Counted from the stretch's first letter, positions 45,516 through 64,000 are shown. The stretch: 64,000 nucleotides of DNA from Candidatus Methanomethylophilaceae archaeon (GCA_050950505.1 JBMNHS010000001.1:192001-256000); one strand, 5' to 3'. Numbers and translations are program-made. Notes: a model not told the origin generated them from the sequence alone.

Positions 45516-46019
45516 TTATGCAGTCAGATTTTTGATGATGGGAAGAACCCCTACGATAAACACCAAAATACTGCCGACAAGACACAGGTATGTGCCGATG
45601 CCGTAACCCACGGAACCGCCCAGGAGCGATCCGCCGGAAGCGCCGGTGTCCAACCAAACCATAAAGAGTATGGATACCACAAGCAGAACGACGGAAATCA
45701 CAATGGCCACAATACCGAGAATTCCTTCGGTCTTGGCACCGCCGAGATATTTACTGGGCACAACAGAGATTATCAATGCGATGATTGCGAGAATCAGCGC
45801 TATCAGAGGCACCATGTTCTGCCATGCATCTTTATCCTGCAGATATTCGCCGTCAAAGAATTGCATTCCCGTGTATCCGGTTGTTTCAGACGCACCCAAT
45901 ACCGTAACGGTGACATCAGCCCAAGAAAGGAAGAATGCCACTATAACCAGAATCGCACCCACTATCCCAATGAATTGGAATGCAGAGAACGGTCCAACTT
46001 TTTTATCTAAGAAAGACAT
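45516..46019 (-). CDS. Four-TM membrane protein
   Basis: Hydrophobic helices; FFLSW...GYGIGTYL. Confidence 0.75.
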   Translation of the reverse strand: MSFLDKKVGPFSAFQFIGIVGAILVIVAFFLSWADVTVTVLGASETTGYTGMQFFDGEYLQDKDAWQNMVPLIALILAIIALIISVVPSKYLGGAKTEGILGIVAIVISVVLLVVSILFMVWLDTGASGGSLLGGSVGYGIGTYLCLVGSILVFIVGVLPIIKNLTA

Positions 46020-46267
46020 ATTTTTCCATCCTGATAAGATGCACTAAGCATCCCATCCAGGAGTGTAAACGGTATTTGTTTTTTATAAGCTTATTGACGA
46101 AGTTGACAGAAAACAGGATAAAATGACGGGATATATTCCAGACGTGGCTTAAAAAATAGATTAAAAAAATATGCCAATATGTTTACTCTATTTGTCGAAA
46201 ATCAGTGTCGTGTCCTATTCATTCTTGCCATTAAGATATAAATATCGAAGGCCCTCTAAAATATTCT

Positions 46268-48355
46268 ATGCGCAGTAGTGAATCGATGTTAGATTATTTC
46301 TTCAAACAGAATCATTTCGAAATACCGCTATACCAACGAACCTATGACTGGAAAAAAAGAAACTGCGAGATTCTTTTTGATGATATCCTCGACATACACA
46401 AAGTGTCAGAGATGCCAGGGTCCGAGGGTAAATACAAAAAGCATTTCTTCGGCATAGTGATTTGTCTGATAGATCAGCAAACGGGGCATCGCGCAATCAT
46501 AGACGGGCAACAAAGAGTTACATCCGTGGCATTACTGCTGGCCGCCATAAGGGATGCTGTCCTTGATGAGAAGATTGAATCTGAAGATGACAGGCTTGCA
46601 AGTAAAATCGATCGCAGGCTGAAGGATCAGGATTACGGCACGGTCTTCATAAAGCCCATCGAAAAAGACAGAATCGTGTATGATGCCATAATGACTCACG
46701 ACATCATACTCGACGAATATGCGGGATCCAATATTCTGATTAATTACAATTACTTTAAAGAGAGGGTTTTGAAACTGGATGATATAACGATAGACCAGTT
46801 TATCGAGTGTCTGGATAATCTGTATATCGTTCCCATCCACCTAAGCAGTCTGGACGACGATGCGCAAAAGGTCTTTGAGAGTATCAATTCCACCGGATTG
46901 AGTCTGACCGAGGGCGATAAGATTCGCAACTATATGCTCATGAATCACAGCCCTGCCGATCAAGAACGGTATTACAAACGGTATTGGACGAAAATAGACG
47001 ACGGAGCTATAGACACCACCAGATTCATCAGGGATTACCTTACGGCAGGTACGGGAAACATCCCCAGGTTGAATAACGTATATGATGATTTTAAAAAATA
47101 TGCGAAATTCCGCAGAATCACCGAAGAAGCATTCGTGGAACTGTTCGAAGAGTTGGTGCAGTATTCCCGATATTACCATAATCTTCAGGAAAATAATCTG
47201 AATCACATATCGGAAAACGCGTCCCTGTTAATGTTCAGAATAAATTACCAAAGAGCCACGGTCGTATATCCGTTCATAATGAAGATTCTGAACTACCATG
47301 AAACCGGCAACCTTACTGACGAAGAGGTTGTTGATGTACTGGGTGTAATAGAGAATTATATTTTACGAAGAGCCATCTGCAAACTGCCCACGAACACCTT
47401 GAATAAGGTCTTCAGCGGCATATTCTATTCTTTGATTAGGGACGATTCGGGCGGTTTTGCCGAGAGATTCAAATATTCTTTGCTCAGAAGAGAGGGTACT
47501 GCCAGATACCCCAGAGATGAGGAGGTGTTTTATCACCTGACAGAAACGGATCTGTACAATACCCGTACCGTTTGCACTCATGTTTTGGCAACGATAGAGC
47601 ACGCTAACAGAGATTCCCAGGACACTCTGGAACGAATAGAGGACGGTAAATTGACAGTGGAACACGTTATGCCGCAGACCCTTTCGAAAGAATGGATCGG
47701 ACACCTGGGAGAAAATTACAGAGAAGTTCACGATGTGTGGCTGCACAGACTGGGCAACCTTACCCTGACCGCGTACAACAGCAAATACAGTAACAAATCG
47801 TACGAATTCAAACGCAATTTGGAAGATTCTGGATTCCGGGAAAGCAGACTGTGGCTGAACCGCATAATGGCGGAAAGCGAGACGTGGACCGAAGATAGGA
47901 TCCGCGAACGGAACACGATTCTTGCTGACAGATTTTTAAAGGTTGTGCCGGAACTTGTCACTTCGTATGAAGCGCCCATTGCTGTCGACGATTCAGTCAT
48001 ATATTCCTTGGAAGAAGCGGATAATGAATTTTATGGAATACAGGTCACAGGGTTCTTGTTCGACGGCGAAAGGTATGCCGCCAGAAGTGCGATTGATGCC
48101 TATACCCAGATTTTGAGAATGTTTTATGATCAGGATCCCGTCAAATTCACAACCCTGATGAATGAAAAAGGAAGCAGTCTATGGATGAGTTCCGACTCTG
48201 TCAAGGCCAAGGCATGGGGATATGATGAAATTGCTCCGGGAGTTTGGACAAGTAAAGATATGGATAATCCGAGAAAGGCAAGATTTTTGAGACAATTTGC
48301 CGCTTTCTTTGGTATGGAATTCGATGACATTGCATTCATCGTCAAAGGTAAATGA
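46268..48355 (+). CDS. GmrSD-like (DUF262 plus DUF1524 HNH) modification-dependent nuclease
   Basis: IPLYQRTYDW, IDGQQR, FESINSTG..L; HNH-type VEHVMPQ..LGNLTL..YN. Confidence 0.88.
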   Translation: MRSSESMLDYFFKQNHFEIPLYQRTYDWKKRNCEILFDDILDIHKVSEMPGSEGKYKKHFFGIVICLIDQQTGHRAIIDGQQRVTSVALLLAAIRDAVLDEKIESEDDRLASKIDRRLKDQDYGTVFIKPIEKDRIVYDAIMTHDIILDEYAGSNILINYNYFKERVLKLDDITIDQFIECLDNLYIVPIHLSSLDDDAQKVFESINSTGLSLTEGDKIRNYMLMNHSPADQERYYKRYWTKIDDGAIDTTRFIRDYLTAGTGNIPRLNNVYDDFKKYAKFRRITEEAFVELFEELVQYSRYYHNLQENNLNHISENASLLMFRINYQRATVVYPFIMKILNYHETGNLTDEEVVDVLGVIENYILRRAICKLPTNTLNKVFSGIFYSLIRDDSGGFAERFKYSLLRREGTARYPRDEEVFYHLTETDLYNTRTVCTHVLATIEHANRDSQDTLERIEDGKLTVEHVMPQTLSKEWIGHLGENYREVHDVWLHRLGNLTLTAYNSKYSNKSYEFKRNLEDSGFRESRLWLNRIMAESETWTEDRIRERNTILADRFLKVVPELVTSYEAPIAVDDSVIYSLEEADNEFYGIQVTGFLFDGERYAARSAIDAYTQILRMFYDQDPVKFTTLMNEKGSSLWMSSDSVKAKAWGYDEIAPGVWTSKDMDNPRKARFLRQFAAFFGMEFDDIAFIVKGK

Positions 48356-48413
48356 ATCATATGGGTACAATCCATTGAGAAAATTGACAGAATTATTACG
48401 GAGTTGATTTACT

Positions 48414-50313
48414 ATGCCCGATAAGCTTAATATGCACACAAAAAACGCCACTCAAGAAAATATTGAAAGGATTGGCGCTTTGTTTCCCAATTGTATAGTC
48501 GAAGCGGCTGACGAGGGGGGGGGGGTTAGACGCTTTATTGATTTCCAAAGTCTAAAACAAGAGCTATCGGAAGACCTCGCACCGGACTCACGGGAAAGAT
48601 ACCAGTTTACTTGGCCGAATAAATCTGAACATAGAGCTCAGACGAATCATCAAGTTTCAGAAACTTTAAGACCTTATCCGGAAGAGAGCGTGGAATTTGA
48701 TAAAACAGAAAATCTCTACATAGAGGGGGACAATCTAATAGCGTTAAAACTTCTCAGAGAAACCTATCTGAATAAAATTGACGTGATATACATAGATCCT
48801 CCATACAATACAGGCAATGATTTTGTTTATAGGGATGACTTTACTATCAGTGATTCCGAATATCTCGACGTCAACGGAACTTATGACGTGGAAGGTAACC
48901 GATTATTCAGAAACACAAACACCAACGGAAGATTTCATACTGATTGGTTGAACATGATGTATCCGCGGCTCCGGCTTGCCAGGGATTTATTATCAGAAGA
49001 AGGAGTTATTTTCATATCGATTGATGATAACGAATTTAAAAATTTGAGAAATATATGCGATGAGATATTCGGAGAAAATAATTTTGTTGCGACCGTAATC
49101 TGGGAAAGGGCATTTTCTCCAGTGAATTTAAAAAGACATTTTTCTGAGAGTCATGATTATATTGTGGCATATGCCAAATCAGTCGATAATCTAATATGTA
49201 ACGGATTACCACGGGATGAGAAGGCGGACAACAGATATTCCAATCCGGACGAGGATTCCAGGGGGCCATGGGCTTCGAGTGATTTGTCCGTGGGACCTGC
49301 AATAGAGGCGAATATATACGAAATTGTAACTCCTTCCGGAAGAGTTGTTATGCCGCCCAGCGGATACAGTTGGCGTCTGAGTAAAAAACGATATTCCGAA
49401 TTCTTGAAGGAGGGGCGCATATGGTTTGGATCTGACGGGAGCGGAGTCCCTCGAATAAAACGATTCTTGTCTGAAGTGAAGCAGGGAATCACTCCCATGA
49501 CGATATGGAAACATCAAGAAGTAGGGCATTCGCAAAAAGCTAGTCAGGATTTGAAAGCGTTATTTGATGGTAAATCATTCTTCACATATCCTAAACCTGT
49601 GGAACTAATAAAGAGAGTATTAATGCTCTATTCCGACAAAGAATCTCTAATATTGGATTTCTTTTCAGGTTCTGCGACCACTGCACATGCAGTCATGAAC
49701 CTTAACACAGAAGATGGAGGCAGAAGAAGATATATTATGATTCAACTGCCTGAGGAAACCGATAAAAAATCAGATGCATATAGGGCAGGATTTGAAAATA
49801 TCTGCGAAATAGGCAAAGAACGTATCCGTATAGCGGGGAAACAACTAATTGAGAAAAATTCCGAACAGCGAACGCTGACCGATGAAGATATTCCCCATGG
49901 CACAGACATAGGATTCAGAGTCCTTAAAATTGACAGTTCCAATATGAAGGATGTTTATTATGCTCCAGATAAAACCTTCAAACGTGGCCTGGATGAACTT
50001 TTGGATAATGTCAAAGAAGATTCGGACTCCCGAAGATCTGCTGTTCCAGGTAATGTTGGAACTCGGTATCGATCTATCTTCGATAATCGAAGAATATACC
50101 ATCGACGAAAAGAAGGTACTCAGCGTCGACGAGGGTTACCTTATTGCGTGTTTTGATAAGAACGTTTCAGAGAATGTTGTTACAGAAATTGCAAAGAAGA
50201 AACCACATTATGCTATAATGAGGGACAATTCCATGTCCGATGACAATGTAGCAGTCAACTTTGAACAGATATTCAAAACATACAGCCCCGATACCGTCAG
50301 AAGAATTCTGTGA
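48414..50313 (+). pseudogene. mod: Type III R-M Mod, copy 1 (m6A MTase); G11 tract in frame, +1 frameshift near 50021
   Basis: IEGDNL, IYIDPPYNTG, DFFSGSATT; GAAGATTCGGAC has one more T than the paralogs (GAAGATCG), and the C-terminus continues in the +1 frame to TGA 50313. Confidence 0.9.
48515..48525 (+). repeat. G11 homopolymer in the 5' end of mod1 (in frame)
   Basis: GACGA-G11-TTAGA encodes DEGGGVR. Confidence 0.9.
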
Positions 50314-50358
50314 TTTAAAACGAGATGTGTTAATTACATCTACAGAGTTGATTCTTAC

Positions 50359-52267
50359 ATGTCAGATAAACTCGATATGCATACAAAGAATATCATTCAG
50401 GAAAATATTGAGAAAATTGGTGCGCTGTTCCCCCATTGCGTCACCGAAGCGACTGATGAACACGGAGAAATCAGACAGCTTATCGATTTCGAAAGTTTGA
50501 GACAGGAGTTATCAGAAGATCTTGTATCGAATATGAATGAAAGATATCGATTTATTTGGCCTGATAAATTAAAATTCCAAAATCTTGCGAATGAGCCCGT
50601 TAGTAAAACTCTGAGACCTTATAGGGATGAAAGTGTAAATTTCGATAACACTCGCAACCTGTACATAGAAGGAGATAACCTGGATGTGCTGAAACTTCTA
50701 AGGGAAACTTACCTGAATAAGGTGCATGTAGTGTACATAGATCCACCCTACAATACAGGCAACGACTTCGTGTACAAAGACAATTTTAAAATTAGCGGCC
50801 CAGAATTTGAAAACGTGAGCGGACTTCGTGATGAGGAGGACAATAAACTTTTCCGGAATACGGATTCCAACGGAAGATTCCATACTGACTGGCTCAATAT
50901 GATGTACCCTAGGCTTAAGTTGGCCAGAGACTTGCTTAATGATGAGGGTTTGATTTTGATATCGATTGATGAGAATGAATCACATAATTTAAAAAAAATT
51001 TGTGACGAACTCTTCGGAGAACGGAACTTTATAGGAGATGTGGTCCGAAAAACTAAGAGTATGACGGGAGACAGTGGTGTCGGATTTAACCTACAGCACG
51101 AGTATTTGCAGATTTATGCCAAAGATATAAACCGCGTAGCGCTACGTGGTGAAGAAAAGGATTTCAAAAATTATTCGAATCCCGACGATGATGTCAATGG
51201 AGATTGGTGCCCCGGCGACCCCAGTGCAAAAAGTGGTGGCAATTCGACTTATTTTCCTATTGCTAACCCTCATACTGGTAAGATTGACTATCCTCCGAAG
51301 GGGCGGTATTGGGCATTTTCTAAAACTACGCTTGAAAGATATGTCGATACAGGTAGAATAAAATTCAAAGAAGCACACTCCGACAGGGAAAGAGGATTCG
51401 TATTTAAGAGATACAAGAAGGATATTGTCGAATCGTTCAATCCCGTTAACAGTCTCTTTGCAATTGAAAATGAATTTATGAACAGCGGAGCTACTGCCGA
51501 ATTGAGTAGATTGTTTGACGGAGCCTTGTTCGACTATCCGAAACCAGTTGGATACATAAAGGCCCTACTCGAGTATACGACAGATAAGGATTCAATCATT
51601 CTTGATTTCTTCTCCGGTTCTGCAACAACTGCTCATGCCGTCATAGAGCTGAACACTGAAGACGGGGGCGATAGGAAATACATTATGATCCAATTGCCTG
51701 AAGAAACCGATAAAAAATCGGATGCGTACAAAGCGGGATTTCATAATATTTGTGAATTGGGCAAAGAGCGAATTCGTCGTGTCGGAGAGCAGTTGGGGGG
51801 GGGGGGGGGGGGGCTGTAAGCAACAAAAATTGGTTGGCGAGTGCCTTTTCAAAGATACAGATGTTGGTTTTAGAGTCTTGAAAGTCGATAGTTCCAACAT
51901 GAAGGATGTGTACTATACGCCAGACAAAACTTTCAAACACGGCCTGGACAAACTTTTGGATAATGTCAAAGAAGATCGAACTCCCGAAGATCTACTGTTC
52001 CAGGTAATGTTGGAACTTGGCGTCGAATTGTCTTCAACGATACAGGAATATACCATTGACGGAAAGAGAGTCTTCAGCGTCGACGAGGGTTACCTTATTG
52101 CATGTTTTGATATGGACGTTTCAGAAAATGTAGTTATAGAAATTGCAAAAAGTAATCCACATTATGCAGTGATGAGGGATAATTCCATGTCTAACGATAG
52201 TGTAACCATAAACTTTGAACAGATTTTCAAAACATACAGTTCTAAGACTATCAGAAGAATTCTATGA
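50359..52267 (+). CDS. mod: Type III R-M Mod, copy 2; frameshifted at a G19 tract (G18 restores a 635-aa ORF)
   Basis: VYIDPPYNTG, DFFSGSATT in ORF 50359-51819; conserved C-terminus GFRVLKVDSSNMKD..TIRRIL in the next frame. Confidence 0.9.
51795..51813 (+). repeat. G19 homopolymer in the 3' part of mod2 (out of frame)
   Basis: CAGTT-G19-CTGTAAG. Confidence 0.92.
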
Positions 52268-52354
52268 TTAACAACAAAGTCCTGATTACAAACTCTCTAG
52301 TGTATATAATAAAAAAACGGGATAGTTTAATACTGTCTATAGAGTTGATTCCTT

Positions 52355-54219
52355 ATGTCCGATAAGCTCTATATGCGTACAAAGAACATCACTCAGGAAA
52401 ATATTGAGAATATAGGTGCACTATTCCCTCATTGTATTACAGAAATAACCGCCGGGGGGGGGGGGTTAGGCACGTTATTGATTTTGAATGTTTGAAGCAG
52501 GAATTGTCGGAAGACATCGTATCGGATGTTAGGGAGAGGTATCAATTTACGTGGCCAGATAAAATCAAATCAAAAATTCTGGCAAATAGTCCCATTTCTA
52601 AAACTTTGAGACCGTGTCGAGAAGAGAGCGTGAATTTTGATGACACTAAAAATCTCTACATCGAAGGCGACAATTTGGATGCGTTAAAACTTCTTAGAGA
52701 AACTTACCTCAGTAAGATAAAGATGATTTATATAGATCCTCCATACAACACAGGAAATGATTTCGTGTATAGTGACAGGTTTACAAGTACTATAGATGAA
52801 TACAAGAAAAGAGGAAACGAATACGACGATATTGGAAACAAACTTTTCAAAAACACCGACACGAACGGCAGATTTCATACAGATTGGTTGAATATGATGT
52901 ATCCCCGGCTCAGATTGGCAAGAGACCTCTTATCTGACGACGGAGTTTTATTCGTATCAATAGACGATAATGAGGCTCATAATTTAAGAAAAATTTGCGA
53001 CGAGGTATTTGGAGAGGGAAATTTCATTGCACAAATTTGCCATAAATCTAGAGCCTCGATATCGAATGATAAAATTATATCTCAGAATCATAACATAATA
53101 ATGTTTTATGCAAAGAGTCATGAACACATCCATACGAATAGAAGATATATCGGGCTTGATCCCAACTTAGACGGGTTCGATATGGATGACAATGATGGAC
53201 AGGGACCCTATCGTCTTGTACCTGTAGATGGGCCTGGTGGGGCAACTAAAGGCAACCCTTACTATGAATTCCTGGGAATAGAAAATTTTTGGCGATTTTC
53301 AAAATCCACAATGCAGGAAAAGTATGACGAAGGGCATATAGTGAAAAGAGGAAACGGCCTATCTCAAAAATACTATCTTTCAGTCGCTAAAGAAAGGAGG
53401 CGGACTGATAATACCTGGTGGGATGATGGGGGTTTAACATCTACAGCGACTTCGAGACTGAGGAAACTTATGGGAAATAAGAGTTTTGACACTCCTAAGC
53501 CCGTAGAATTGATTAAACGAATGTTAAAGCTTGTTACATTTTTTGATAAAGATTCTACAATACTTGATTTTTTTTCCGGTTCTGCAACAACGGCCCATGC
53601 TGTTATGGAGCTGAACTCGGAAGACGGCGGTAACAGAAAATATATCATGATTCAGTTACCGGAAAAGACTGATGAAGAGTCTGATGCTTATTTGTCGGGC
53701 TATAAGAATATCTGCGAAATCGGTAAGGAGCGTATACGTCGTGCAGGGAAACTCATACTGGAAGAGAGTGAGCAACATAGATTAACCGCCAATGGTTTTT
53801 CAAAGGATTTAGATGTCGGGTTCCGAGTTTTGAAAATCGACAGTTCCAACATGAAGGACATATACTACATGCCGGACGAAACTTTCAAACACGGCCTAGA
53901 CGAACTTTTGGATAATGTCAAAGAAGATCGGACCTCCGAAGATTTACTCTTTCAAGTAATGCTGGAACTTGGTGTGGAACTGTCTTCGACCATTGAGGAA
54001 TACGTCATAGACGAAAAGAAGGTGTTTGGTGTCGACGAGGGGTATCTTATTGCATGTTTTGATGATAACGTTTCAGAAAACGTGGTTACGGAAATTGCAA
54101 AAAGAAGACCGTATTATGCGGTGATGAGGGATAATTCAATGTCTGATGACGGCGTGGCAGTCAATTTTGAGCAGATTTTCAATACATACAGTCCCGAAAC
54201 CATCAGGAGAATTCTGTAA
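52355..54219 (+). CDS. mod: Type III R-M Mod, copy 3; frameshifted at a G12 tract (G10 or G13 restores the frame)
   Basis: ATG 52355 gives MSDKLYMRTKNITQENIE as in the paralogs, then stops shortly after the tract; the body (IYIDPPYNTG, DFFSGSATT) is in the other frame. Confidence 0.9.
52454..52465 (+). repeat. G12 homopolymer in the 5' end of mod3 (out of frame)
   Basis: ACCGCC-G12-TTAGGCAC. Confidence 0.92.
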
Positions 54220-54303
54220 TCGATGACTCAAGTAGTGCTGACTCCCTCTGAAGTATATAAAAAAAATAGGATACTTTAATACAATCTATAGAGTTGATTC
54301 CTT

Positions 54304-56262
54304 ATGTCCGATAAACTCGATATGTATACGAAAAATATCACCCAAGAAAATATTGAGAAGATTGGTGCATTATTTCCCCATTGCGTTACAGAAACAATTG
54401 ATGAGCAGGGGAGGGGCAGGCAGCTTATTGATTTTGAATGTTTGAAGCAGGAATTATCAGAATATATCGTATCGGACGTTAAGGAAAGATATCAGTTCAC
54501 ATGGCCGGATAAGACCGAATCTAAGCTTCAGTCTAACAGACCTATAAATAAAACTTTGAGGCCTTATCGAGAAGAAAGCATAGAGTTTAGCAAGACTGGG
54601 AATTTATACATAGAAGGGGACAACCTAGATGTGTTGAAACTTCTTAGAGAGGCTTACCTGGGTAAAGTGAAAATGATATATATCGACCCCCCGTACAACA
54701 CAGGCGATGATTTTCTTTACAAAGACAATTTTAAAATGAGTGTTTCTGAATATCAATCAGTAGAAAATTTGTACGATTCGGAAGGAAATATGTTATTTCG
54801 AAATGCTGATTCGAATGGACGATTTCATACAGATTGGTTAAACATGATGTACCCTCGATTGCGCATTTCGAGAGATCTGTTATCTGAAGATGGAGTTATA
54901 CTCGTAAGTATAGATGACCGTGAAGTTAGTAATGTTAGAAAAATAATGGACGAGATATTTGGAAAGCAGAACTTCATAGCTCAATTTATTTGGAAGAAGA
55001 AAGCGGGGGGCGGATCCGACTCTCGATATGTTGCAGTAGATCATGAGTATGTTTTGGTGTATGCGAAAGATGAGTCCGTACAGGATAAATGGACTATGCC
55101 CATGACTGAAGTTCAGAAATCCAGCTATAGACTTAAAGACTCCAATTATGACATATACGGTCCATATAAACTTAAGAATCTGCATCAGACCGGTATTGAT
55201 AGTAATAGGCCTAATCTGAATTACCCTATCACATGTCCAGACGGGTCTGAATTGTGGCCTCCCACAATATGGAGATGGTCCAAAGAAACTTTTGATAAAG
55301 CTCTTTCCAATGATGAGGTAGAATTTGTTCAAAATAGGAAAGGGGATTGGTCTGTGCATAGTAAGATGTACTTAAATAAAGATGGGGGTGAGTACGAAGT
55401 TAAACCACGAAGTATACTCATTGATGCAGGATACACGCGCGATGGAAAAAAGGACTTGATAGATATATTTGGGATTTCGATCTTTGATTATCCTAAGCCT
55501 GTTAAATTGATAAAATTATTTTTAGACATAATTTCGCGCAAAGATGGAGATATCGTATTAGACTTTTTTGGAGGTTCGTCCACGACTGCTCATGCGGTTA
55601 TGGAGTCTAATTACGAAAACGCCATTAATCGTAAATTTATAATGGTTCAATTGCCTGAAAATCTCGACTATATGAGTGATGTTGTCAGGGGTCATTCTAA
55701 AAAAACCATATCGGATGCCGTTAAGCTCTTAGATTCCATAGGAAAACCTCGAATCTTGACTGAAATTGGAAAGGAGCGTATCCGTCGTGTAGGCGATAAG
55801 CTATCACGTGAAGGGTATCAATGTAATCTTATTGATGATGTTAGAAAGGGCTACGATATAGGTTTTAGAGTCCTGAAGATAGACAGTTCCAACATGAAGG
55901 ACATATACTACACGCCGGACAAAACCTTCAAACACGGCCTGGACGAACTTTTGGATAATGTCAAAGAAGACCGAACTCCCGAAGATCTATTGTTCCAGGT
56001 AATGTTGGAACTTGGTGTTGATTTGTCTTCAAAAATTGAAGAACATTCCGTAGATGAAAAGAAAATCTTTAGCGTCGACGAGAATTATCTTATTGCATGT
56101 TTTGATGTAGGTGTATCGGAAAATGTTGTTACGGAAATCGCAAAGAAGAAGCCTCATTACGCCGTAATGAGAGACTATTCCATGTCCAACGATAACGTTG
56201 CAGTCAACTTTGAACAAATTTTCAAAACATACAGCCCCGAAACCATTAGAAAGGTGATTTGA
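54304..56262 (+). CDS. mod: Type III R-M Mod, copy 4, intact and coupled to res
   Basis: IYIDPPYNTG, DFFGGSSTT; the tract position holds an interrupted GGGGAGGGG; stop overlaps the res start. Confidence 0.93.
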   Translation: MSDKLDMYTKNITQENIEKIGALFPHCVTETIDEQGRGRQLIDFECLKQELSEYIVSDVKERYQFTWPDKTESKLQSNRPINKTLRPYREESIEFSKTGNLYIEGDNLDVLKLLREAYLGKVKMIYIDPPYNTGDDFLYKDNFKMSVSEYQSVENLYDSEGNMLFRNADSNGRFHTDWLNMMYPRLRISRDLLSEDGVILVSIDDREVSNVRKIMDEIFGKQNFIAQFIWKKKAGGGSDSRYVAVDHEYVLVYAKDESVQDKWTMPMTEVQKSSYRLKDSNYDIYGPYKLKNLHQTGIDSNRPNLNYPITCPDGSELWPPTIWRWSKETFDKALSNDEVEFVQNRKGDWSVHSKMYLNKDGGEYEVKPRSILIDAGYTRDGKKDLIDIFGISIFDYPKPVKLIKLFLDIISRKDGDIVLDFFGGSSTTAHAVMESNYENAINRKFIMVQLPENLDYMSDVVRGHSKKTISDAVKLLDSIGKPRILTEIGKERIRRVGDKLSREGYQCNLIDDVRKGYDIGFRVLKIDSSNMKDIYYTPDKTFKHGLDELLDNVKEDRTPEDLLFQVMLELGVDLSSKIEEHSVDEKKIFSVDENYLIACFDVGVSENVVTEIAKKKPHYAVMRDYSMSNDNVAVNFEQIFKTYSPETIRKVI

Positions 56263-59200
56263 TGGAATTCAAATTTAAAATACAGAAATTCCAAACCGAT
56301 GCCGTCAACAGTATTGTTGAAGTATTCGATGGGCAGGAATCAGAAGGAGGGCTTGTGTATAGACATGACAAAGGTACCAAAACCCAATACAGATTCGATA
56401 CTGAATCCGGTGCCTTCGATTCCGAGGGTATTGCATACGGTAACAAACCTGTGTCTTTGAGTGACGAAGAACTTCTGAAAAACATAATATCGATTCAGAA
56501 TAAAAACGGAATAGTTCCATCAAAAATATTAGATAAAACTCTCGGGAGATGCTCACTGGATGTTGATATGGAAACAGGAACGGGAAAAACATACGTTTAC
56601 ACCAAAGCCATGTTCGAACTGAACAAAAAGTACGGATGGAGCAAATTCATCATTGTTGTTCCCAGCATAGCGATAAGAGAAGGCGTAAAAAAATCATTAG
56701 AAATCACTCAAAACCACTTTATGGAACATTACGGTAAAAAAATCCGTCATTATGTTTATGATTCATCGAGACTCCACGACATAGACGATTTTTCTCAGAG
56801 GTCAGACGTATGCGCCTTAATAATCAATTCTCAGGCATTCGCGACTTCTCTGAAAAAAGACGGAAAAAGCAAAGCCAGCAGAATCATCTATTCCGAAAGA
56901 GATGATTTCGCATCTCGCCGTCCGATTGACGTGATAGCCGCAAACAATCCCATTCTTATCTTGGACGAACCTCAAAAACTCAGCGGAAAGGCCACCCAAG
57001 AGGCCCTGAAAGAAGAATTTAACGCCCTGTTTTCAATTAACTTCTCGGCAACGCACAGAGTTGTTCATAACAAAATATACGGCTTGGACGCTTTGGACGC
57101 TTTTAACAAGAAATTAGTTAAAAAAATCGAGGTCAAAGGTATTGAAGTCAGCGGAGTCACGGGTGCTGACAAATACGTTTACCTCGAAGATATAATACTC
57201 GACCCGAAGAAACCTCCGAGGGCAAAGGTCGAAATCGAATTTAAACGTAAAACCTCGGAACCCGGAAGGAAAACCATTCTTTTGGACGAGGGGGACAGCC
57301 TCTATATTCACTCAAATGAACTCGAGGCTTACAAAGGTTTGACTTTGATTGAAATTGATGCTATCAATGGAGAAATCAGACTGAGCGACGGTACCGAAAT
57401 CATCAAAGGGGAAGTCATAGGAGACATAACCGAAGATAACCTCCGGCGCATACAGATCCGCGAAGCCGTTTCATCACACTTTGAAAAAGAAAGAACCCTG
57501 TTCCCTCAGGGAATAAAATGTCTGAGTCTGTTCTTTATAGACTCCGTGGCAAAATACCGTCAATACGATGAAGACGGCGAAGAACTCCTCGGAGAATATG
57601 GCATAGTGTTCGAAGAGGAGTATAACAGATACTTAAGGGAAAATTCAGACAGATTTGACGAGAGTTATGCCAAGTATATTACTGGTATACCGGTGGAACA
57701 GACTCATAACGGATACTTCAGCATAGATAAACAGAAACGCGCAATAGACAGTACGGAAAAAAGAGAAGGCGGCTCCGATGATGTGGACGCTTACGATTTA
57801 ATAATGAAAAATAAAGAACGTCTTTTAAGTTTCAATGAAAAAACCCGATTTATCTTCTCGCATTCTGCGCTTAGGGAGGGCTGGGACAATCCCAATATAT
57901 TCCAGATTTGCGCCCTGAAGCATACGGACAGCACCACTTACCTCCGCCAGGAGGTTGGAAGAGGTTTGCGGTTATGCGTTGATCAGGAAGGGACCAGAAT
58001 GGATCTCGAAACCTGCGGAGATAATATCCACGAATTGAACACACTTACCGTTGTGGCAAGCGAAGGGTACGATACCTTCGTACAGGCGCTTCAGAAGGAT
58101 ACTTTGAACTATATTTCTGATAAACCCGTAAAGGTAACTCCGAAATATTTCATAGACAGAAAATTTTTCACGGAAGACGGGGAAGTCATCATAGACGAAG
58201 AAACTTCGACCGAGATATACTTCTACCTAGTTGAGAACAGATTCGTGGATTCCAAAGGATCCATCACAGAAACCTGCAAAGGGGTATTGACGGAAGAAGG
58301 CATTCTTCCGGACCTCCCTGAGAAATTTGCACATATTCAGACAGAACTTACGAACCTTGTGCTTGCGGCATCCGAGAACCGTGATCCCGCATCACTGTAT
58401 TCCGACGGTCGCAGACCCAAGGTCAGGAATGACAGACTCAATGATAATTTCTACAGGAAAGAATTCCAAACATTATGGAATAATATCAACAATAAGTACG
58501 TTTATTCCGTATCATTCGACAGTGACGAACTGATTGAAAAATCCGTGGCTTCGATAAACAAACATCTCAACGTTCCAAGGTCCAGCTACACGGTAAAGAA
58601 GGGCTCACAGGCGGACCAGATGACAAAAGACGATGTTTCCAAAGGAACATCATTCACCGACAGAAGCACCCGCACCGACACACTTGACAGCATCGGATCA
58701 GAGGTACCCCGGGACCTGGTCGGAGAAATCGCCAAAGGAAGTACACTTACAAGACGCACCGTGGTTAAAATTCTGAAAAACATGACGGATGAAAAATTTA
58801 ACCTGTACAAACTGAATCCCGAAATGTTTATCCAAAAAATGATAGAACTTATCAACGAACAAAAGGCCACAATCATAGTCAGTCATATCTCATACAGCAA
58901 GACGGATGGTCAATTCGACAACGATATCTTCACGGTAAGCAAACCCGAGACTGATTTTGAAAAAGCTTTCCATGCGGAGAAACACATCTTGGATTATGTA
59001 TTCACGGACGGAATCGCGGAAAAAAGCGTTGAACGGAAATTCGTTGAGAATCTGGATATTGACGAAGACGTGTGCGTTTACGCAAAATTACCGACCGCAT
59101 TCTACATACCCACACCCGTAGGGAACTATACCCCGGACTGGGCCATCGCTTTTAACGAAGGTACCGTAAAACACATCTATTTCATAGCCGAAACAAAGGG

Positions 59201-59345
59201 CTCAATGAGTTCCATGCAGCTTCGCGCAATAGAAAAAGCCAAAACCGAATGCGCCGAAAAACTGTTTGACAACATCTCCACAATCGATGTGAAATATTCG
59301 GTTGTCAGCGATTACGAAGAATTGCTCAAAATCGTAAAGGGATGA
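56259..59345 (+). CDS. res: Type III restriction endonuclease Res
   Basis: METGTGKT, LDEPQ, FSATH, ALREGWDNPN, QEVGRGLRL, C-terminal YTPDWAIAF..AETKG nuclease motif. Confidence 0.94.
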   Translation: MMEFKFKIQKFQTDAVNSIVEVFDGQESEGGLVYRHDKGTKTQYRFDTESGAFDSEGIAYGNKPVSLSDEELLKNIISIQNKNGIVPSKILDKTLGRCSLDVDMETGTGKTYVYTKAMFELNKKYGWSKFIIVVPSIAIREGVKKSLEITQNHFMEHYGKKIRHYVYDSSRLHDIDDFSQRSDVCALIINSQAFATSLKKDGKSKASRIIYSERDDFASRRPIDVIAANNPILILDEPQKLSGKATQEALKEEFNALFSINFSATHRVVHNKIYGLDALDAFNKKLVKKIEVKGIEVSGVTGADKYVYLEDIILDPKKPPRAKVEIEFKRKTSEPGRKTILLDEGDSLYIHSNELEAYKGLTLIEIDAINGEIRLSDGTEIIKGEVIGDITEDNLRRIQIREAVSSHFEKERTLFPQGIKCLSLFFIDSVAKYRQYDEDGEELLGEYGIVFEEEYNRYLRENSDRFDESYAKYITGIPVEQTHNGYFSIDKQKRAIDSTEKREGGSDDVDAYDLIMKNKERLLSFNEKTRFIFSHSALREGWDNPNIFQICALKHTDSTTYLRQEVGRGLRLCVDQEGTRMDLETCGDNIHELNTLTVVASEGYDTFVQALQKDTLNYISDKPVKVTPKYFIDRKFFTEDGEVIIDEETSTEIYFYLVENRFVDSKGSITETCKGVLTEEGILPDLPEKFAHIQTELTNLVLAASENRDPASLYSDGRRPKVRNDRLNDNFYRKEFQTLWNNINNKYVYSVSFDSDELIEKSVASINKHLNVPRSSYTVKKGSQADQMTKDDVSKGTSFTDRSTRTDTLDSIGSEVPRDLVGEIAKGSTLTRRTVVKILKNMTDEKFNLYKLNPEMFIQKMIELINEQKATIIVSHISYSKTDGQFDNDIFTVSKPETDFEKAFHAEKHILDYVFTDGIAEKSVERKFVENLDIDEDVCVYAKLPTAFYIPTPVGNYTPDWAIAFNEGTVKHIYFIAETKGSMSSMQLRAIEKAKTECAEKLFDNISTIDVKYSVVSDYEELLKIVKG

Positions 59346-59357
59346 GACGGTGAAAGG

Positions 59358-62300
59358 ATGGAGATCCTGAACAACATCGACAGGAAACTGGGGGACGACC
59401 TCAAAGAAACGATTGTCGAAGGAAGCGATGTTAGCATAGCGTGCGAACGATTCTCCATCTATGCATACCAGGCATTGATGGGTCAGCTCAATAAAATACA
59501 CTCGATCAGATTTATTTTTACTTCGCCCACTTTCATAAAAGAAGAAAACGTCAAAGAGAAAAGAGAATTCTATATTCCGAGACTTTCCAGGGAAAGAGGA
59601 ATTTACGGAACGGAATTTGAAGTTAAGCTAAGAAACGAACTGACCCAAAAAGCGTTGGCAAAACGATGCGGGGATTGGATTCGTCACAAGGCCGAATTCC
59701 AATCGAACATAACGGAAAGGTCTATGAACAATTTCCTGAACATCGATTACGGCGATTCTGGCTACTCCTATTCCGGCATCAGAGGATTTACTACTACGGA
59801 TCTGGGTTATGAAAAAGGAGATGCCCTGACCAATCTTGTAAATAAAAATACCTTCAATGAAAGCAGAATGTATCTGGATCATTTCAACTACTTGTGGAAT
59901 GACAAAGAAAACATGCAAAATGTGAAGGACGAGGTTCTGAAACGTATTTCCACGGCATACGCCGAAAATTCTCCCGAAGCCCTTTATCACGTAACTTTGT
60001 ACAATATATTCAAAAAATATCTCGATGAATTATCCTCGGACAATCTTCCGAAAGAAGAAGTCGGATTGAAAGATTCGGTCATCTGGAACAAACTGTACAC
60101 CTTCCAGAAAGATGCCGTCATGGCCGTAATCAATAAACTGGAAACGTACAACGGATGCATCCTCGCCGACAGTGTGGGTCTCGGTAAAACCTTCACCGCA
60201 TTGGGCGTAATCAAATATTACGAAAACAGAAACGACCGTGTTCTGGTCCTTTGTCCCAAAAAACTATCCGAAAACTGGAAAGTGTTCCGGGAAAACTACA
60301 GGAATAACCCAGTTGCCGAAGACCGATTCGGTTACGACGTATTGCATCATACCGACTTATTGAGGGAAAGAGGAGAATCCAACGGTATTAATCTGGCACG
60401 TATAAATTGGAGCGGATATCAACTCGTGGTTATAGACGAATCCCATTATTTCAGAAACGGAGAAACCAGTGCCATAGAAGGAACGGATAACAGATACCAA
60501 CGGCTTCTTAAGGAAGTAATCCGCAAAGGAACCAAAACCAAAGTGCTGATGCTATCGGCCACTCCGGTAAACAACCAGTTTACGGATCTCTACAATCAGC
60601 TTAGAATCGCGTACGAGGGCAACGCCGAAAAAATGGACAGAAATCTAGAAGTCAGTACGTCAATAAAAAGGATATTCTCGGATGCGCAAGGAGCCTTCAA
60701 CCGATGGAAAGAATATGACCCGGAACACCGTACCACGGACAATCTGTTGAAATTATTGGATGATGATTTCATAAACGTTTTGGACAGTTTGACAATTGCC
60801 CGCTCCCGTCGCCACATAGAGCAATATTACGGTACAAAGGACATCGGAGAATTTCCGAAACGGTTGCCGCCCAAATCACTGAGTCCCGGCATATCCGAAA
60901 CGCCCGGCACCATATCATTTTCCGAAATATACAATACACTCGAAAAATTGAACCTTCAGGTATATATGCCGACGAATTTCGTCCTTTCAAGTAAATTAAG
61001 CAAATATGTCAGTTCTGAAACCAATATAAGCCGTGCAGGAAGAGAAAAAGGAATTCGGAGTTTGATTTCGATCAACCTCTTGAAGAGATTGGAAAGCTCG
61101 ATTTATTCTTTTGAAAAGACTTTGAAAAAAGTAAGAAATTACATTATCAATACCATAGATGCTATCGAGGACCACATTAAAGGAAAAAAGACTGGCACAT
61201 TAGAATACGAAATAGACGAAGATTTGATGGATGACGAAGACAGCTTCAACGCGTTCGAACAGAACGTAGGCATAAAATTGGAAGACATGGATTATCTTTC
61301 GTGGCGTATGTACCTGGAAGAGGACCTGAATCTTTTAGACGGATTGTTGGAAGAAACCTGCAAAATTACTCCGGATGTCGATTACAAACTGAGTGTGCTG
61401 AAGGATGAAATACGCAACAAAGTTAAAAATCCCATAAACCCCGGAAACAGAAAAATCCTCATCTTCTCCGCTTTTGCGGATACTGCGACATATCTTTATG
61501 ACAATCTTGCGGATGATTTGAAGAAACACGGTTTGAACGTTGCAATGATTACAGGTTCCGCAGACGGAAGAAACACAATCAAAGGCCTGAGAAATGATTT
61601 CAATGACATCCTGACCTGTTTCTCCCCCGTGTCGAAAGATATGAATGTGTTGATGCCGGAAATGAAAGAAGAAATTGATATTCTGATAGGCACCGATTGT
61701 ATCTCGGAAGGTCAAAACCTTCAAGACTGCGACTATTGCATCAATTATGACATACACTGGAATCCCGTGAGAATTATTCAGAGATTCGGAAGAATAGACC
61801 GTATCGGGAGTAAGAACGACTGTGTCCAACTTGTGAACTTCTGGCCTGACATTGAGCTTGACGAGTACATCAATCTGAAAGAAAGAGTCGAAACCAAAAT
61901 GAAAATGACCGTGATGACTTCGACCGGGGACGATAACGTTTTAGATCCCAAGGACGAGGGGGATTTGGATTACAGAAAACAGCAATTGAAGAGGCTTCAC
62001 AACGAAATAGTGGAAGTCGAAGAAATGCAATCCGGTATATCCATCACGGATCTGGGTATTCATGAATTCAGAATCGAATTACAAAGGTACGTGGAAGAAA
62101 AAGGAGACTTGGATCTTATACCGTACGGACTTCACGCAGTCGTTCCGTCCGAGAACAGTATGCCCCCTGGAACGATATTCGTTTTGAAAAACATAAACAA
62201 GAATGTTGATATTGAGGGTAAAAATCGTCTGCATCCGTATTATCTCGTTTACATACTGGATGACGGAGATGTTTTTATTGACCATCTGTCCCCCAGAAAA

Positions 62301-62564
62301 ACATTGGAACTTATGAGACGTTCGTGCAAAAAACACACCGAACCGTTGATGGAATTGTGTGAATTGTTCAACAATGCCACGAATGACGGCAAAAACATGG
62401 CAACCGTGTCGGGAATGCTGAGTAATTGTATAAACTCCATAGTCGAAAAGAAAGAACAGGCCAACCTGGATTGTTTCCTCAAAGGCGACAATGTCAGTTT
62501 CCACGACATAAAGAAGAGCGGTCTTGATGATTTCGAACTTGTCAGTTTCCTGGTCGTGATATGA
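59358..62564 (+). CDS. SNF2-family helicase with N-terminal PLD-like domain
   Basis: LADSVGLGKT, IDESHYFR, LSATP, SEGQNLQ, WNPVRIIQRFGRIDRIG. Confidence 0.9.
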   Translation: MEILNNIDRKLGDDLKETIVEGSDVSIACERFSIYAYQALMGQLNKIHSIRFIFTSPTFIKEENVKEKREFYIPRLSRERGIYGTEFEVKLRNELTQKALAKRCGDWIRHKAEFQSNITERSMNNFLNIDYGDSGYSYSGIRGFTTTDLGYEKGDALTNLVNKNTFNESRMYLDHFNYLWNDKENMQNVKDEVLKRISTAYAENSPEALYHVTLYNIFKKYLDELSSDNLPKEEVGLKDSVIWNKLYTFQKDAVMAVINKLETYNGCILADSVGLGKTFTALGVIKYYENRNDRVLVLCPKKLSENWKVFRENYRNNPVAEDRFGYDVLHHTDLLRERGESNGINLARINWSGYQLVVIDESHYFRNGETSAIEGTDNRYQRLLKEVIRKGTKTKVLMLSATPVNNQFTDLYNQLRIAYEGNAEKMDRNLEVSTSIKRIFSDAQGAFNRWKEYDPEHRTTDNLLKLLDDDFINVLDSLTIARSRRHIEQYYGTKDIGEFPKRLPPKSLSPGISETPGTISFSEIYNTLEKLNLQVYMPTNFVLSSKLSKYVSSETNISRAGREKGIRSLISINLLKRLESSIYSFEKTLKKVRNYIINTIDAIEDHIKGKKTGTLEYEIDEDLMDDEDSFNAFEQNVGIKLEDMDYLSWRMYLEEDLNLLDGLLEETCKITPDVDYKLSVLKDEIRNKVKNPINPGNRKILIFSAFADTATYLYDNLADDLKKHGLNVAMITGSADGRNTIKGLRNDFNDILTCFSPVSKDMNVLMPEMKEEIDILIGTDCISEGQNLQDCDYCINYDIHWNPVRIIQRFGRIDRIGSKNDCVQLVNFWPDIELDEYINLKERVETKMKMTVMTSTGDDNVLDPKDEGDLDYRKQQLKRLHNEIVEVEEMQSGISITDLGIHEFRIELQRYVEEKGDLDLIPYGLHAVVPSENSMPPGTIFVLKNINKNVDIEGKNRLHPYYLVYILDDGDVFIDHLSPRKTLELMRRSCKKHTEPLMELCELFNNATNDGKNMATVSGMLSNCINSIVEKKEQANLDCFLKGDNVSFHDIKKSGLDDFELVSFLVVI

Positions 62565-63169
62565 TTCTCGGGCTCCCCAAATCCACAAAGGTGTTCAATC
62601 AATTGCCGAAAAAGCAAATTTTCGAACAGTTCAGAGTATCTCCGAAAGAACGTAAAAGATTCGATGACGATATAGGCAGACTTGCCATTGTCAACGAGAT
62701 TTCACCGAAAACCGTTAATCTTGACAAAGGAACCAAAGTCGATTCCATATTCTTCGTAAGGATTGAACTGAAAAATAAAGAATACGACCGAAAGAATCTG
62801 ATTCTGATCAGTAAACTGATCGATCAAAGCATGATTTTCATTTTGGAATGGGAAGAACAGCAAAAGATAGCGGTTTACGAAACCGAACTCATCGAAAGTG
62901 ACTGGCACAATTCCGAAGACTTCAAGTTGAAAATTGAAGGTATCAATTTGGATTCGGTTTGGAATAATTTCATAATCGGGATCGGCGGGATTGTTCTCGA
63001 AGACGACAATACGCTTATTGAGCAGATATCGCTTGATACTGAACGAGAAAAGCTGCAGGAACGGATTGATGCTTTGGATAAGCGGGTACGGAAGGAAATG
63101 CAACCGAAGAAGAAAAGAGAATTGTGGGATGAGTTAAAGAGTTTAAGAAAGGAATTGGAAGGTTTGTGA
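62561..63169 (+). CDS. DUF4391-like protein
   Basis: LGLPKSTKVFNQLPK start, C-terminal coiled coil RKEMQPKKKRELW; typical partner of SNF2/Type III loci. Confidence 0.78.
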   Translation: MILGLPKSTKVFNQLPKKQIFEQFRVSPKERKRFDDDIGRLAIVNEISPKTVNLDKGTKVDSIFFVRIELKNKEYDRKNLILISKLIDQSMIFILEWEEQQKIAVYETELIESDWHNSEDFKLKIEGINLDSVWNNFIIGIGGIVLEDDNTLIEQISLDTEREKLQERIDALDKRVRKEMQPKKKRELWDELKSLRKELEGL

Positions 63170-63229
63170 TACCGAAATAAATAACACTGAATGAGGTGGT
63201 GTATTCATTGTGTCAAAGGAGTGAAAAAT

Positions 63230-64000
63230 TTGTTCAATTCAGATTTGCCGATTAAAGGGGTCGAGGAAGATGCATTGAACAGAAGCGAATTTGCGAAGTG
63301 TCTGGCGAATACGCTACTGAATCATACTAGCCGCGAGGGATTTGTAATAGGGTTATACGGCAAGTGGGGCAGCGGAAAAACATCAGTTCTTAACATGATT
63401 CAGAAAGAGATCGAGCGGGAATCCAAGAATATATCTGAAAACCCTATTGTTCTGAGATTCAATCCATGGCTATGTTCAAATCCCAATCAACTCGTGTCTC
63501 AATTTTTCACACAGCTGTCATCTGAGATAAAGAATATTCCGGATTTGAATGATTTATACGGTTTAGTTGACGAATACTCGGACGCTTTAGAACTATTGCC
63601 TGTGATACCGATAGTCGGTACTTCGTTATCGGTCATATCAAAGATATTGGTAAAAAAATCCCATAAACGGAAAAACAATGGAAGGGATCTTCAGAAAATC
63701 AAGAATAAATTGAATGATATAATAGATAAAAAAAAGAGAAAAATCATTGTAATGATTGATGATGTGGATCGACTGAGCAATGAAGAGATAATCTCTGTTT
63801 TCCAATTGGTCAAAACAATAGCGGATTTCCCGTATGCCGTTTATCTGCTTGCATTTGATCGTGAAATTATCATTAACGCCTTACGGGAGGTTCAGAAGGG
63901 GGATGGGGCGGAATATCTTGAAAAAATAGTTCAGGTCCCTTTCGAACTGCCTGAACCGGAATCCGAAGATGTTCACAGGATATTCAAGGAAAGACTTGAA
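63230..64000 (+). CDS. KAP-family P-loop NTPase, 5' part (runs off the window)
   Basis: FNSDLPI..DALNRSEFA, IGLYGKWGSGKTS, MIDDVDRL, YLEKIVQVPFELP; TTG start after GGAGTG. Confidence 0.9.
   Translation, partial: MFNSDLPIKGVEEDALNRSEFAKCLANTLLNHTSREGFVIGLYGKWGSGKTSVLNMIQKEIERESKNISENPIVLRFNPWLCSNPNQLVSQFFTQLSSEIKNIPDLNDLYGLVDEYSDALELLPVIPIVGTSLSVISKILVKKSHKRKNNGRDLQKIKNKLNDIIDKKKRKIIVMIDDVDRLSNEEIISVFQLVKTIADFPYAVYLLAFDREIIINALREVQKGDGAEYLEKIVQVPFELPEPESEDVHRIFKERLE

Follow-up and report, generated by a model that had tools for sequence, protein, structure and literature searches.

We analysed a 64,000-nucleotide (nt) stretch of DNA from a Candidatus Methanomethylophilaceae archaeon (GCA_050950505.1, JBMNHS010000001.1:192001-256000), referred to as the window throughout, which carries at 48414-59345 on the + strand four consecutive mod genes belonging to a restriction-modification (R-M) system of Type III, followed by a single res gene. 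The best explanation for this locus, and in our judgement a rather probable one, is a Type III system with one Res and four alternative Mods, of which three are gated by slippage in long poly-G tracts and the fourth, Mod4, is constitutive.

Arrangement of the mod array

Using open reading frame (ORF) calling and Pfam searches, four consecutive ORF sets with PF01555, the domain of N6/N4 DNA methylases, and then one 1028-codon Res ORF were found. The genes, their G tracts and their target-recognition domains (TRDs), the latter delimited by conserved motifs, are given below, together with one irregular base in mod1 (MTase, methyltransferase; aa, amino acids).

48414..50313, + strand: mod1, Type III Mod paralog (PF01555, 4.7e-39; alignment); G11 in frame, deposited copy frameshifted by the T at 50021
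48515-48525, + strand: G11 tract in the mod1 N-terminal domain, codons ~34-38 (Gly run), in frame
49086-49589, + strand: TRD of mod1
50021, + strand: extra T of the deposited sequence, non-repeat, putting the C-terminal domain of mod1 out of frame; a gap in the other three cassettes
50359..52267, + strand: mod2, Type III Mod paralog (PF01555); G19 splits a 486-aa part (N-terminal domain, MTase, TRD) from the frame of the C-terminal domain
51031-51537, + strand: TRD of mod2
51795-51813, + strand: G19 tract in the mod2 linker between MTase core and C-terminal domain, out of frame
52355..54219, + strand: mod3, Type III Mod paralog (PF01555); G12 frameshift at codon ~34, downstream frame open to the normal stop
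52454-52465, + strand: G12 tract in mod3, at the site equivalent to the mod1 tract, out of frame
53026-53493, + strand: TRD of mod3
54304..56262, + strand: mod4, Type III Mod, 652 aa, intact and tract-free (PF01555; PADLOC MTase_III); its stop overlaps the res start
54976-55491, + strand: TRD of mod4
56262..59345, + strand: res, single intact Type III Res with SF2 helicase and C-terminal endonuclease (Pfam ResIII and RE_endonuc; PADLOC REase_III)

A sequence-only reading of the window had described four tandem mod paralogs with similar ends and dissimilar centres in front of one res. Pfam, the alignment and the identity profile agreed with this description, the three tracts were found at the positions and in the frame states that it had given, and the motif-based limits of the TRDs came within 10 nt of its estimates. 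At the DNA level the four cassettes were 63-80% identical in their opening ~650 nt and 34-49% in the central region, with 63-68% in the part behind it and 75-88% in the final ~400 nt. Taking at least two adjacent mod paralogs, with divergent TRDs and a repeat of their own, upstream of a single res as the mark of a tandem multi-mod locus, the array is such a locus, with repeats in three of its cassettes and none in the other.

The mod4 stop overlaps the ATG of res at 56262 (TGATG), which suggests translational coupling of the two genes; the ORF caller places the res start at a TTG at 56259. Every cassette has its own leader, conserved and with a Shine-Dalgarno-like element, as judged by eye from the four intergenic sequences, and A/T-rich TATA-like boxes were seen ahead of mod3 and mod4 on reading the sequence only.

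Type III family membership and predicted structure

The DPPY motif (motif IV, D128-P129-P130-Y131), the TRD and the FxGxG motif (motif I, F421...G424-S425) were invariant in order and motifs in the four cassettes, the arrangement of a beta-class amino-methyltransferase. Mod4 matched the PADLOC profile MTase_III PDLC03634 over its full length (1.5e-211, residues 2-650), and Res matched PF04851 (5.5e-14), PF19778 (8.1e-30) and the PADLOC profile REase_III PDLC03647 (5.2e-282, profile positions 1-987 of 989), matches that fit an SF2 helicase motor with a PD-(D/E)xK-type endonuclease at the C-terminus. The PDB sequence matches of Mod4 were all Type III Mods (6k0w, 2e-63; EcoP15I 4zcf, 4e-54; Mbo45V 7dsu, 1.6e-35). 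An AlphaFold model of Mod4 was obtained from 34 sequences, with a predicted local distance difference test score (pLDDT) of 77.7 and a predicted template modelling score (pTM) of 0.72. Compared with chain 4zcf_B, the Mod of EcoP15I, it gave a Z of 36.3 and a root-mean-square deviation of 5.0 with 475 residues aligned, covering model residues 66-652 and including the C-terminal domain. Judged from these profiles and the predicted fold, the locus is a true Type III R-M locus.

Biochemically, Type III enzymes are marked by ATP-dependent cleavage, for which two unmethylated sites in inverse orientation are required, and by hemimethylation of an asymmetric site. For EcoP15I, the accessible part of the structural study (PMC4490356) describes a Mod dimer that is built by the N-terminal domains and the MTase cores and that is an active methyltransferase on its own, and further that ModA, the DNA-reading protomer, contacts Res extensively through its C-terminal domain.

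Long G tracts and their reading frames

Placed on the Mod4 model, the residues equivalent to the mod1 and mod3 tracts fall in an N-terminal-domain loop that is flanked by strands 28-32 and 38-42; mod4 itself reads G4AG4 at this site. The position of the mod2 tract falls on a low-confidence linker after the last MTase helix. In mod2 a stop follows two codons past G19, and a length of G18 or G21 would join the open C-terminal frame. In mod3 the stop is reached 10 codons past G12, with G10 or G13 as in-frame lengths. As deposited, both genes are one slip away from an in-frame length. A TTG located 22 nt upstream of the mod3 tract opens, with G12, a 595-codon frame through the tract into mod3 (52432-54219); the public annotation of mod3 is a 571-aa product with a start further downstream than this TTG at 52432.

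Counting G/C runs over the whole 1.33-Mb genome, 221 of length 6, 21 of length 7 and 0 of length 8 were found, followed by single runs of 9, 11, 12 and 19. Three of the four runs of at least 8 in the genome fall inside this 8-kb array. The remaining one, a C9 (G000:C1:1020925-1020933), lies on the loop side of a G+C-rich, terminator-like intergenic hairpin between convergent ORFs. The clustering of tracts in the mod array is non-random.

Tract-length differences between near-identical strains

In all, 20 public runs contained parts of the locus; they belong to 14 studies and come from anaerobic digesters, wastewater, landfill, bioreactors and manure. For four runs, Logan contigs were aligned to window positions 46000-60000, X1 being the probable source run and X4 coming from another study. 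Contigs of X1 spanned the mod1-mod2, mod2-mod3, mod3-mod4 and mod4-res junctions with 0 mismatches, those of X4 spanned mod3-mod4, mod4-res and, at the mod2 end, part of mod2-mod3, and in X2 and X3 all four TRDs were present with no differences. Because contigs of X1 and X4 bridge the cassette junctions, the array is not a mis-assembly, the possibility that the sequence-only reading had asked to be checked.

Near-identical strains have different lengths of two tracts out of three, which is the signature of hypermutable repeats and agrees with the slippage that this reading had inferred. For mod3, the G12 of the window stands against G11 in the sole X2 contig that crosses the tract (depth 6.29 of 6.29), G11 also being out of frame; an X1 contig terminates on the 11th G of the tract. 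For mod2, a protein translated from a 2.1-kb Logan contig of another run (P0123, 504 aa, 99%-identical) differed by 4 substitutions over the 479 residues that precede the tract. Beyond three glycines its sequence corresponds to the third frame of what follows the tract in the window, so its tract has 11 nt versus 19 and is out of frame.

The T at 50021 was omitted by contigs at 5.48 of 10.2 depth in X1, 24.5 of 39.5 in X2, 17.5 of 24.5 in X3 and 0 of 4.1 in X4. As it is missing from contigs of X1, X2 and X3, this T is probably an error or a minority allele, and most of the population probably has an intact mod1 that is ON. The earlier claim that only mod4 is fully intact therefore holds for the deposited sequence and probably fails for the population, given that the T is missing in three of the four runs.

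Loose ends of the alignments pointed to more diversity. Contigs of X1 and X2 leave mod1 at 49828, just before the linker, and continue into other sequence; the X2 contig enters a different linker with at least 10 G, like the mod2 linker tract. Further alleles of the mod1 cassette, one with a linker poly-G tract, are present in the environment. At 57744-60000, X2 and X3 carried the 3' portion of res together with the beginning of the adjoining SNF2 gene as a ~1.5%-divergent variant, at depths of ~96 and ~22 versus ~12 and ~8 for the mod array. It seems that a related strain of higher abundance has res and SNF2 in common with this one, and perhaps has other mods.

Selection on the cassettes and divergence of their target-recognition domains

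With the tracts and the doubtful T set aside, the four cassettes read open over their full length, and mod2 and mod3 are free of any other stop or frameshift. In the N part, nonsynonymous divergence (dN) between cassettes was 0.22-0.27 with saturated synonymous divergence (dS), and dN ranged from 0.14 to 0.46, again with saturated dS, across the N-terminal and motif-I regions; for the C-terminal domain, dN was 0.08-0.11 and dS 0.9-1.8. These values indicate that the cassette frames are under purifying selection, which argues against long-standing pseudogenes, not against recent death.

The four TRDs share a pairwise protein identity of only 23-34%, with 23-29% for the mod1 TRD versus the other three. 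The same mod1 TRD is 58-68% identical to the TRDs of bacterial homologues (L038, L061, L051, L017). In the C-terminal domains identity is 79-84% within the array, compared with 51-69% between Mod4 and other species; for the N parts the corresponding values are 65-70% and 56-70%. Trees of 86 sequences placed the four cassettes in one clade, with a Shimodaira-Hasegawa-like approximate likelihood ratio test (SH-aLRT) value of 100 in the C-terminal-domain tree; the tree of the N-terminal part gave 92.9, unstarred. This single clade fits an old tandem duplication, and the unusually conserved C-terminal domains would fit four Mods docking one Res.

Proposed mechanism

In the mechanism that we propose, one Res nuclease would receive four alternative Mod subunits with different DNA specificities. 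Tract-free and coupled to res, mod4 would provide the constitutive partner, and Res would never be unpartnered. Poly-G slippage in replication would move mod1, mod2 and mod3 in and out of frame independently of each other, and the cells of a population would then differ in which motifs they methylate and restrict, with up to 8 states on top of Mod4. The two kinds of tract are predicted to act differently. A slip in the N-terminal-domain tract of mod1 or mod3 would abolish the protein, while a slip in the mod2 linker tract would remove only the C-terminal domain and leave N-terminal domain, MTase and TRD in place. Since the linker tract precedes the domain that docks Res in EcoP15I, our proposal is that mod2 alternates between two forms, one that restricts and one, lacking the Res-docking domain, that only methylates; by this analogy, the OFF form may methylate without restricting.

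The switching rate, the sharing of Res by the four Mods, the distinct motifs, the methylation-only form and the benefit are what we infer. The benefit would lie in bet-hedging against viruses, in epigenetic heterogeneity or in both. With an intact res that is probably translationally coupled to mod4, variable restriction specificity is a more direct reading of the locus than the term phasevarion used in the sequence-only reading; a phasevarion is defined by a set of other genes whose expression changes when the Mod switches, and its use here is an extrapolation.

Alternative explanations

We were aware that decay of the locus would produce part of the same picture. The array would then be the relic of an old tandem duplication in which only mod4, perhaps with mod1, still works, mod2 and mod3 being pseudogenes inactivated at G runs prone to mutation, whose tract lengths drift neutrally. 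All observed mod2 and mod3 lengths are indeed out of frame, yet both OFF genes stand one slip from frame, and ~3.8 kb of mod2 and mod3 have acquired no other stop or frameshift despite saturated synonymous sites between the cassettes. The non-repeat mod1 frameshift of the deposited sequence would suit decay, as would the poor conservation of the array, which had 0 of 15 matches in the same genus and no tandem in 173 family genomes, and the existence of family homologues split without any tract (G020, G083). A 19-long tract, however, is difficult to account for unless mutability was selected, given that no run elsewhere in the genome exceeds 9, and the tract sites recur in unrelated hosts. Taken together, we regard decay as unlikely.

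A number of observations weigh against the slippage-gated explanation that we prefer. In-frame lengths of mod2 or mod3 were found neither in the contigs of the four runs nor in the protein searches, as would also be expected of dead genes. All four lengths observed, G19 and 11 nt for mod2 and G12 and G11 for mod3, are OFF, for which the chance is ~0.2 if lengths are random; for mod1 only the ON length was observed, for mod2 and mod3 only OFF lengths. No near-identical full-length Mod1, Mod2 or Mod3 was present among 5.8 billion protein clusters, and above 70% identity the protein searches returned only the window's own proteins and one Logan variant of Mod2; collection contigs tend to break at such tracts, so missing ON forms are weak evidence. 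The mod1 G11 was unchanged in the bridging contigs of X1 (record 1) and X2 (record 9) and thus showed no variation. G19 was bridged by no listed contig of the four runs, all of which end 11-14 G into the tract or begin at it, and its length is that of the deposited sequence. An exact repeat of 31 nt that mod3 and mod4 have in common, and not a tract, accounts for the contig breaks near 52476 and 54426. At 50021, X4 covers the T without deletion, leaving a non-repeat mod1 frameshift uncontradicted there, which would be ordinary decay. The signal of purifying selection accumulates over the entire past of the paralogs and is no proof that they function today. Finally, the read evidence consists of Logan contigs at depths of 4-15, compared between samples, rather than of raw reads.

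Very long homopolymers are slippage sites for polymerases. Slippage of RNA polymerase or ribosomes on 11-19 G could give some full-length Mod from each cassette at any DNA length, and the tracts would then set an expression level rather than ON/OFF states. In the accessible part of a 2026 preprint (10.64898/2026.04.01.715767), residual expression that depends on the frame is reported in E. coli for a mod repeat of Mycoplasma bovis in a frameshifted state. As the explanation of the locus we consider leaky expression improbable; it leaves the DNA length differences between strains unexplained, and it complements gating by slippage in replication rather than excluding it.

It is more doubtful still that the deposited tract lengths are homopolymer errors and all mods are in frame and constant. 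The T at 50021, contradicted by three runs including the probable source X1, does reveal at least one indel error or minority variant, and no contig confirmed G19. Against this, the mod1 G11 was exact in X1 and X2, the G11 of mod3 in X2 and the 11-nt version of mod2 were also out of frame, and to obtain three independent out-of-frame calls from genes that were in truth constantly in frame would be unlikely.

That the locus is mainly a recombination reservoir, with TRD exchange or cassette deletion and duplication by way of the conserved flanks, similar to Type I systems with several hsdS genes, is very hard to credit: the flanks are conserved, with C-terminal-domain DNA 75-88% identical, and a few contig joints link different cassettes, but stretches of exact identity between pairs of cassettes reach no more than 25-31 nt, direct-repeat cassettes would lead to deletion rather than inversion, and the ORF list of the locus holds no recombinase gene and no inverted repeats were found. 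The contig joints, which were flagged unreliable and were not counted, connect non-equivalent positions by sides 20-32 letters long.

Host genome and relatives

The host encodes McrA and is therefore a methanogenic archaeon, in line with the archaeal origin that the sequence-only reading had assigned to the locus. Its genome comprises 2 contigs and 1.33 Mb at 49% GC and is 99.6% complete; genomes of relatives have 1-2.4 Mb. MutS domain V (PF00488) and NucS/EndoMS (PF01939) were not found in this 99.6%-complete genome, and both searches responded in control genomes.

Related loci were surveyed around the closest Mod homologues (45-50% identity), 80 in genomes and 80 in metagenomes, mostly from gut or digester bacteria and many cut by contig ends. 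Among the 80 metagenome loci returned, the best match to Mod4 had 50% identity. One homologous locus (L033) is labelled Methanomethylophilaceae. Two tandem mods were found at 5 of the 160 loci (L017, L051, L071, L159, L174), three or more at none. A G9 in the 5' part occurred at four of the 160, in L027 (a Bacteroides metagenome-assembled genome) and L200 at the mod1/mod3 site, and in L051 and L193 ~20 codons later. A Mod match was present in 0 of 15 genomes of the same genus and, at 1e-20, in 19 of 173 other family genomes, none of which had adjacent copies. Three of these 19 had G runs at or beside the gene: G034, from the same archaeal family, with G11 after the ATG and a run of at least 12 G where the gene splits over two contigs; G123 with G8 at the first tract site; and G030 with G11 in a more distant methylase. 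Homologous mods with an in-frame stop or a split but no homopolymer were also seen (L023:10001-11890, L054:10001-11917 and the G020 and G083 loci, L009/L014 and L213/L235). Ordinary decay also occurs in this Mod family.

A census of G/C runs of at least 11 found them in 88 of 151 family genomes and 2 of 15 of the own genus, counts that are inflated by overlapping matches. Sampling 30 family poly-G loci, 19 tracts were interior with 1.5 kb on both sides and 11 lay near contig ends, where poly-G artefacts are possible. Many sampled tracts fell within the first ~50 codons of long open frames. Ten tract-bearing frames were scanned, yielding two BspA-type leucine-rich-repeat proteins, one DUF4443/helix-turn-helix protein and seven without a Pfam match. 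None of the 30 sampled loci held a Mod4 or Res homologue. Possibly there is a family-wide set of contingency genes, and the census is a lead only. A wider version of our explanation would make poly-G contingency loci general in mismatch-repair-less Methanomethylophilaceae, the first archaeal contingency system, and this locus their most elaborate product, a combinatorial Type III system with N-terminal ON/OFF tracts and a mod2 linker toggle that uncouples protection from attack. We put this forward tentatively, with more doubt than belief.

Neighbouring genes

The array lies in a low-GC stretch (0.39-0.45 versus 0.49 for the genome) that begins after housekeeping genes at ~45.5 kb and extends ~18 kb past the window. 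The following neighbours were identified.

46268..48355, + strand: GmrSD-type (Type IV-like) restriction gene (Pfam GmrSD_N/GmrSD_C; PADLOC Orf5/HEC-06/mREase_IV), the upstream neighbour in the low-GC defence island
59358..62564, + strand: SNF2-type helicase (Pfam; PADLOC 'HKD+Snf2')
62561..63169, + strand: DUF4391 protein, 4-nt overlap with the SNF2 gene
63191-64000: KAP-family NTPase, downstream of the DUF4391 gene

With the GmrSD-type gene, the HKD+Snf2 helicase, the DUF4391 protein and the KAP NTPase, the low-GC stretch is a defence island. Homologues of SNF2 and DUF4391 occurred together at 48 of the 80 genome loci and 50 of the 80 metagenome loci around Mod homologues. In those related Mod/Res loci they usually lie upstream of mod, whereas here they lie downstream of res and mod is quadruplicated.

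Significance and comparison with known systems

Repeat-driven DNA methyltransferase switching is a central idea in bacterial pathogen biology, and the surveys and archaeal R-M reviews that we searched were silent on archaea. A small genome without detected MutS or NucS, in which long homopolymers occur only in one restriction locus, would extend contingency-locus biology to archaea and to the conflict between methanogens and viruses. One tract-free, res-coupled Mod beside three gated Mods suggests a way to vary restriction specificity with Res always partnered, and the mod2 linker tract, if our explanation is true, is a slippage switch that separates methylation from restriction. Such loci are annotated as pseudogenes, and in methanogens they will mislead binning that relies on methylation as well as the typing of strains.

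Poly-G mod tracts are known from Helicobacter. In the accessible part of a REBASE survey of Type III mods, repeats are reported in 662 of 3805 genes, with up to four independent switches per genome. The phase-variable bacterial mods of that survey resemble the cassettes described here in having a repeat in the mod frame, conserved 5' and 3' parts and a variable central TRD that defines alleles; they differ in that their tract lies near the 5' end, while the present host is an archaeon, its paralogs are adjacent and share an intact res, and one tract is in a linker. The words 'archaea' and 'Methano' do not occur in the main text of the survey, whose supplementary tables may list archaeal entries. 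In the accessible parts of two archaeal R-M reviews, phase-variable systems appear only within cited titles, and the single Methanomethylophilaceae genome covered in one of them is without a Type III Mod. No archaeal phasevarion was found in the accessible part of a 2026 review, no paper was found that links Methanomassiliicoccales with phase variation, and in a 2010 study of homopolymeric tracts that included 18 archaeal genomes the words 'methyltransferase' and 'restriction' are absent.

The sequence-only reading had known of neither an archaeal example nor a four-mod tandem design. The first part stands for the main texts and literature searches covered, in which we found no archaeal example in print. 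The second overstates the novelty of a tandem with a shared res: the available part of a study of Mycoplasma agalactiae 5632 (PMC9465063) describes two tandem mods, MAGa1570 and MAGa1580, ~65% identical and in a single operon with one res, each with a poly(GA) tract near its 5' end that varies in length within and among strains and often truncates the genes. Tandem mod paralogs with their own repeats, followed by a single res, are thus common to both systems. M. agalactiae, a host-adapted bacterial pathogen, has two cassettes instead of four and poly(GA) instead of poly-G, and it lacks both a tract-free res-coupled cassette and a linker tract.

With EcoP15I the locus shares the domain order of Mod (N-terminal domain, MTase, TRD, MTase, C-terminal domain) and a Res made of helicase and endonuclease; EcoP15I differs in having one mod without repeats, at ~30% identity to the Mod here. 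In multi-hsdS Type I systems of the pneumococcal SpnD39III type, site-specific or homologous inversion between hsdS copies provides one specificity at a time. Such systems likewise combine one restriction machine with side-by-side specificity modules and a population of mixed methylomes, whereas the slippage gates proposed here would be independent for each specificity subunit and several could be ON together. Repeat-switched Type III mods themselves are common in bacteria; new here are the archaeal host, four cassettes on one Res, a tract-free anchor cassette and a linker tract.

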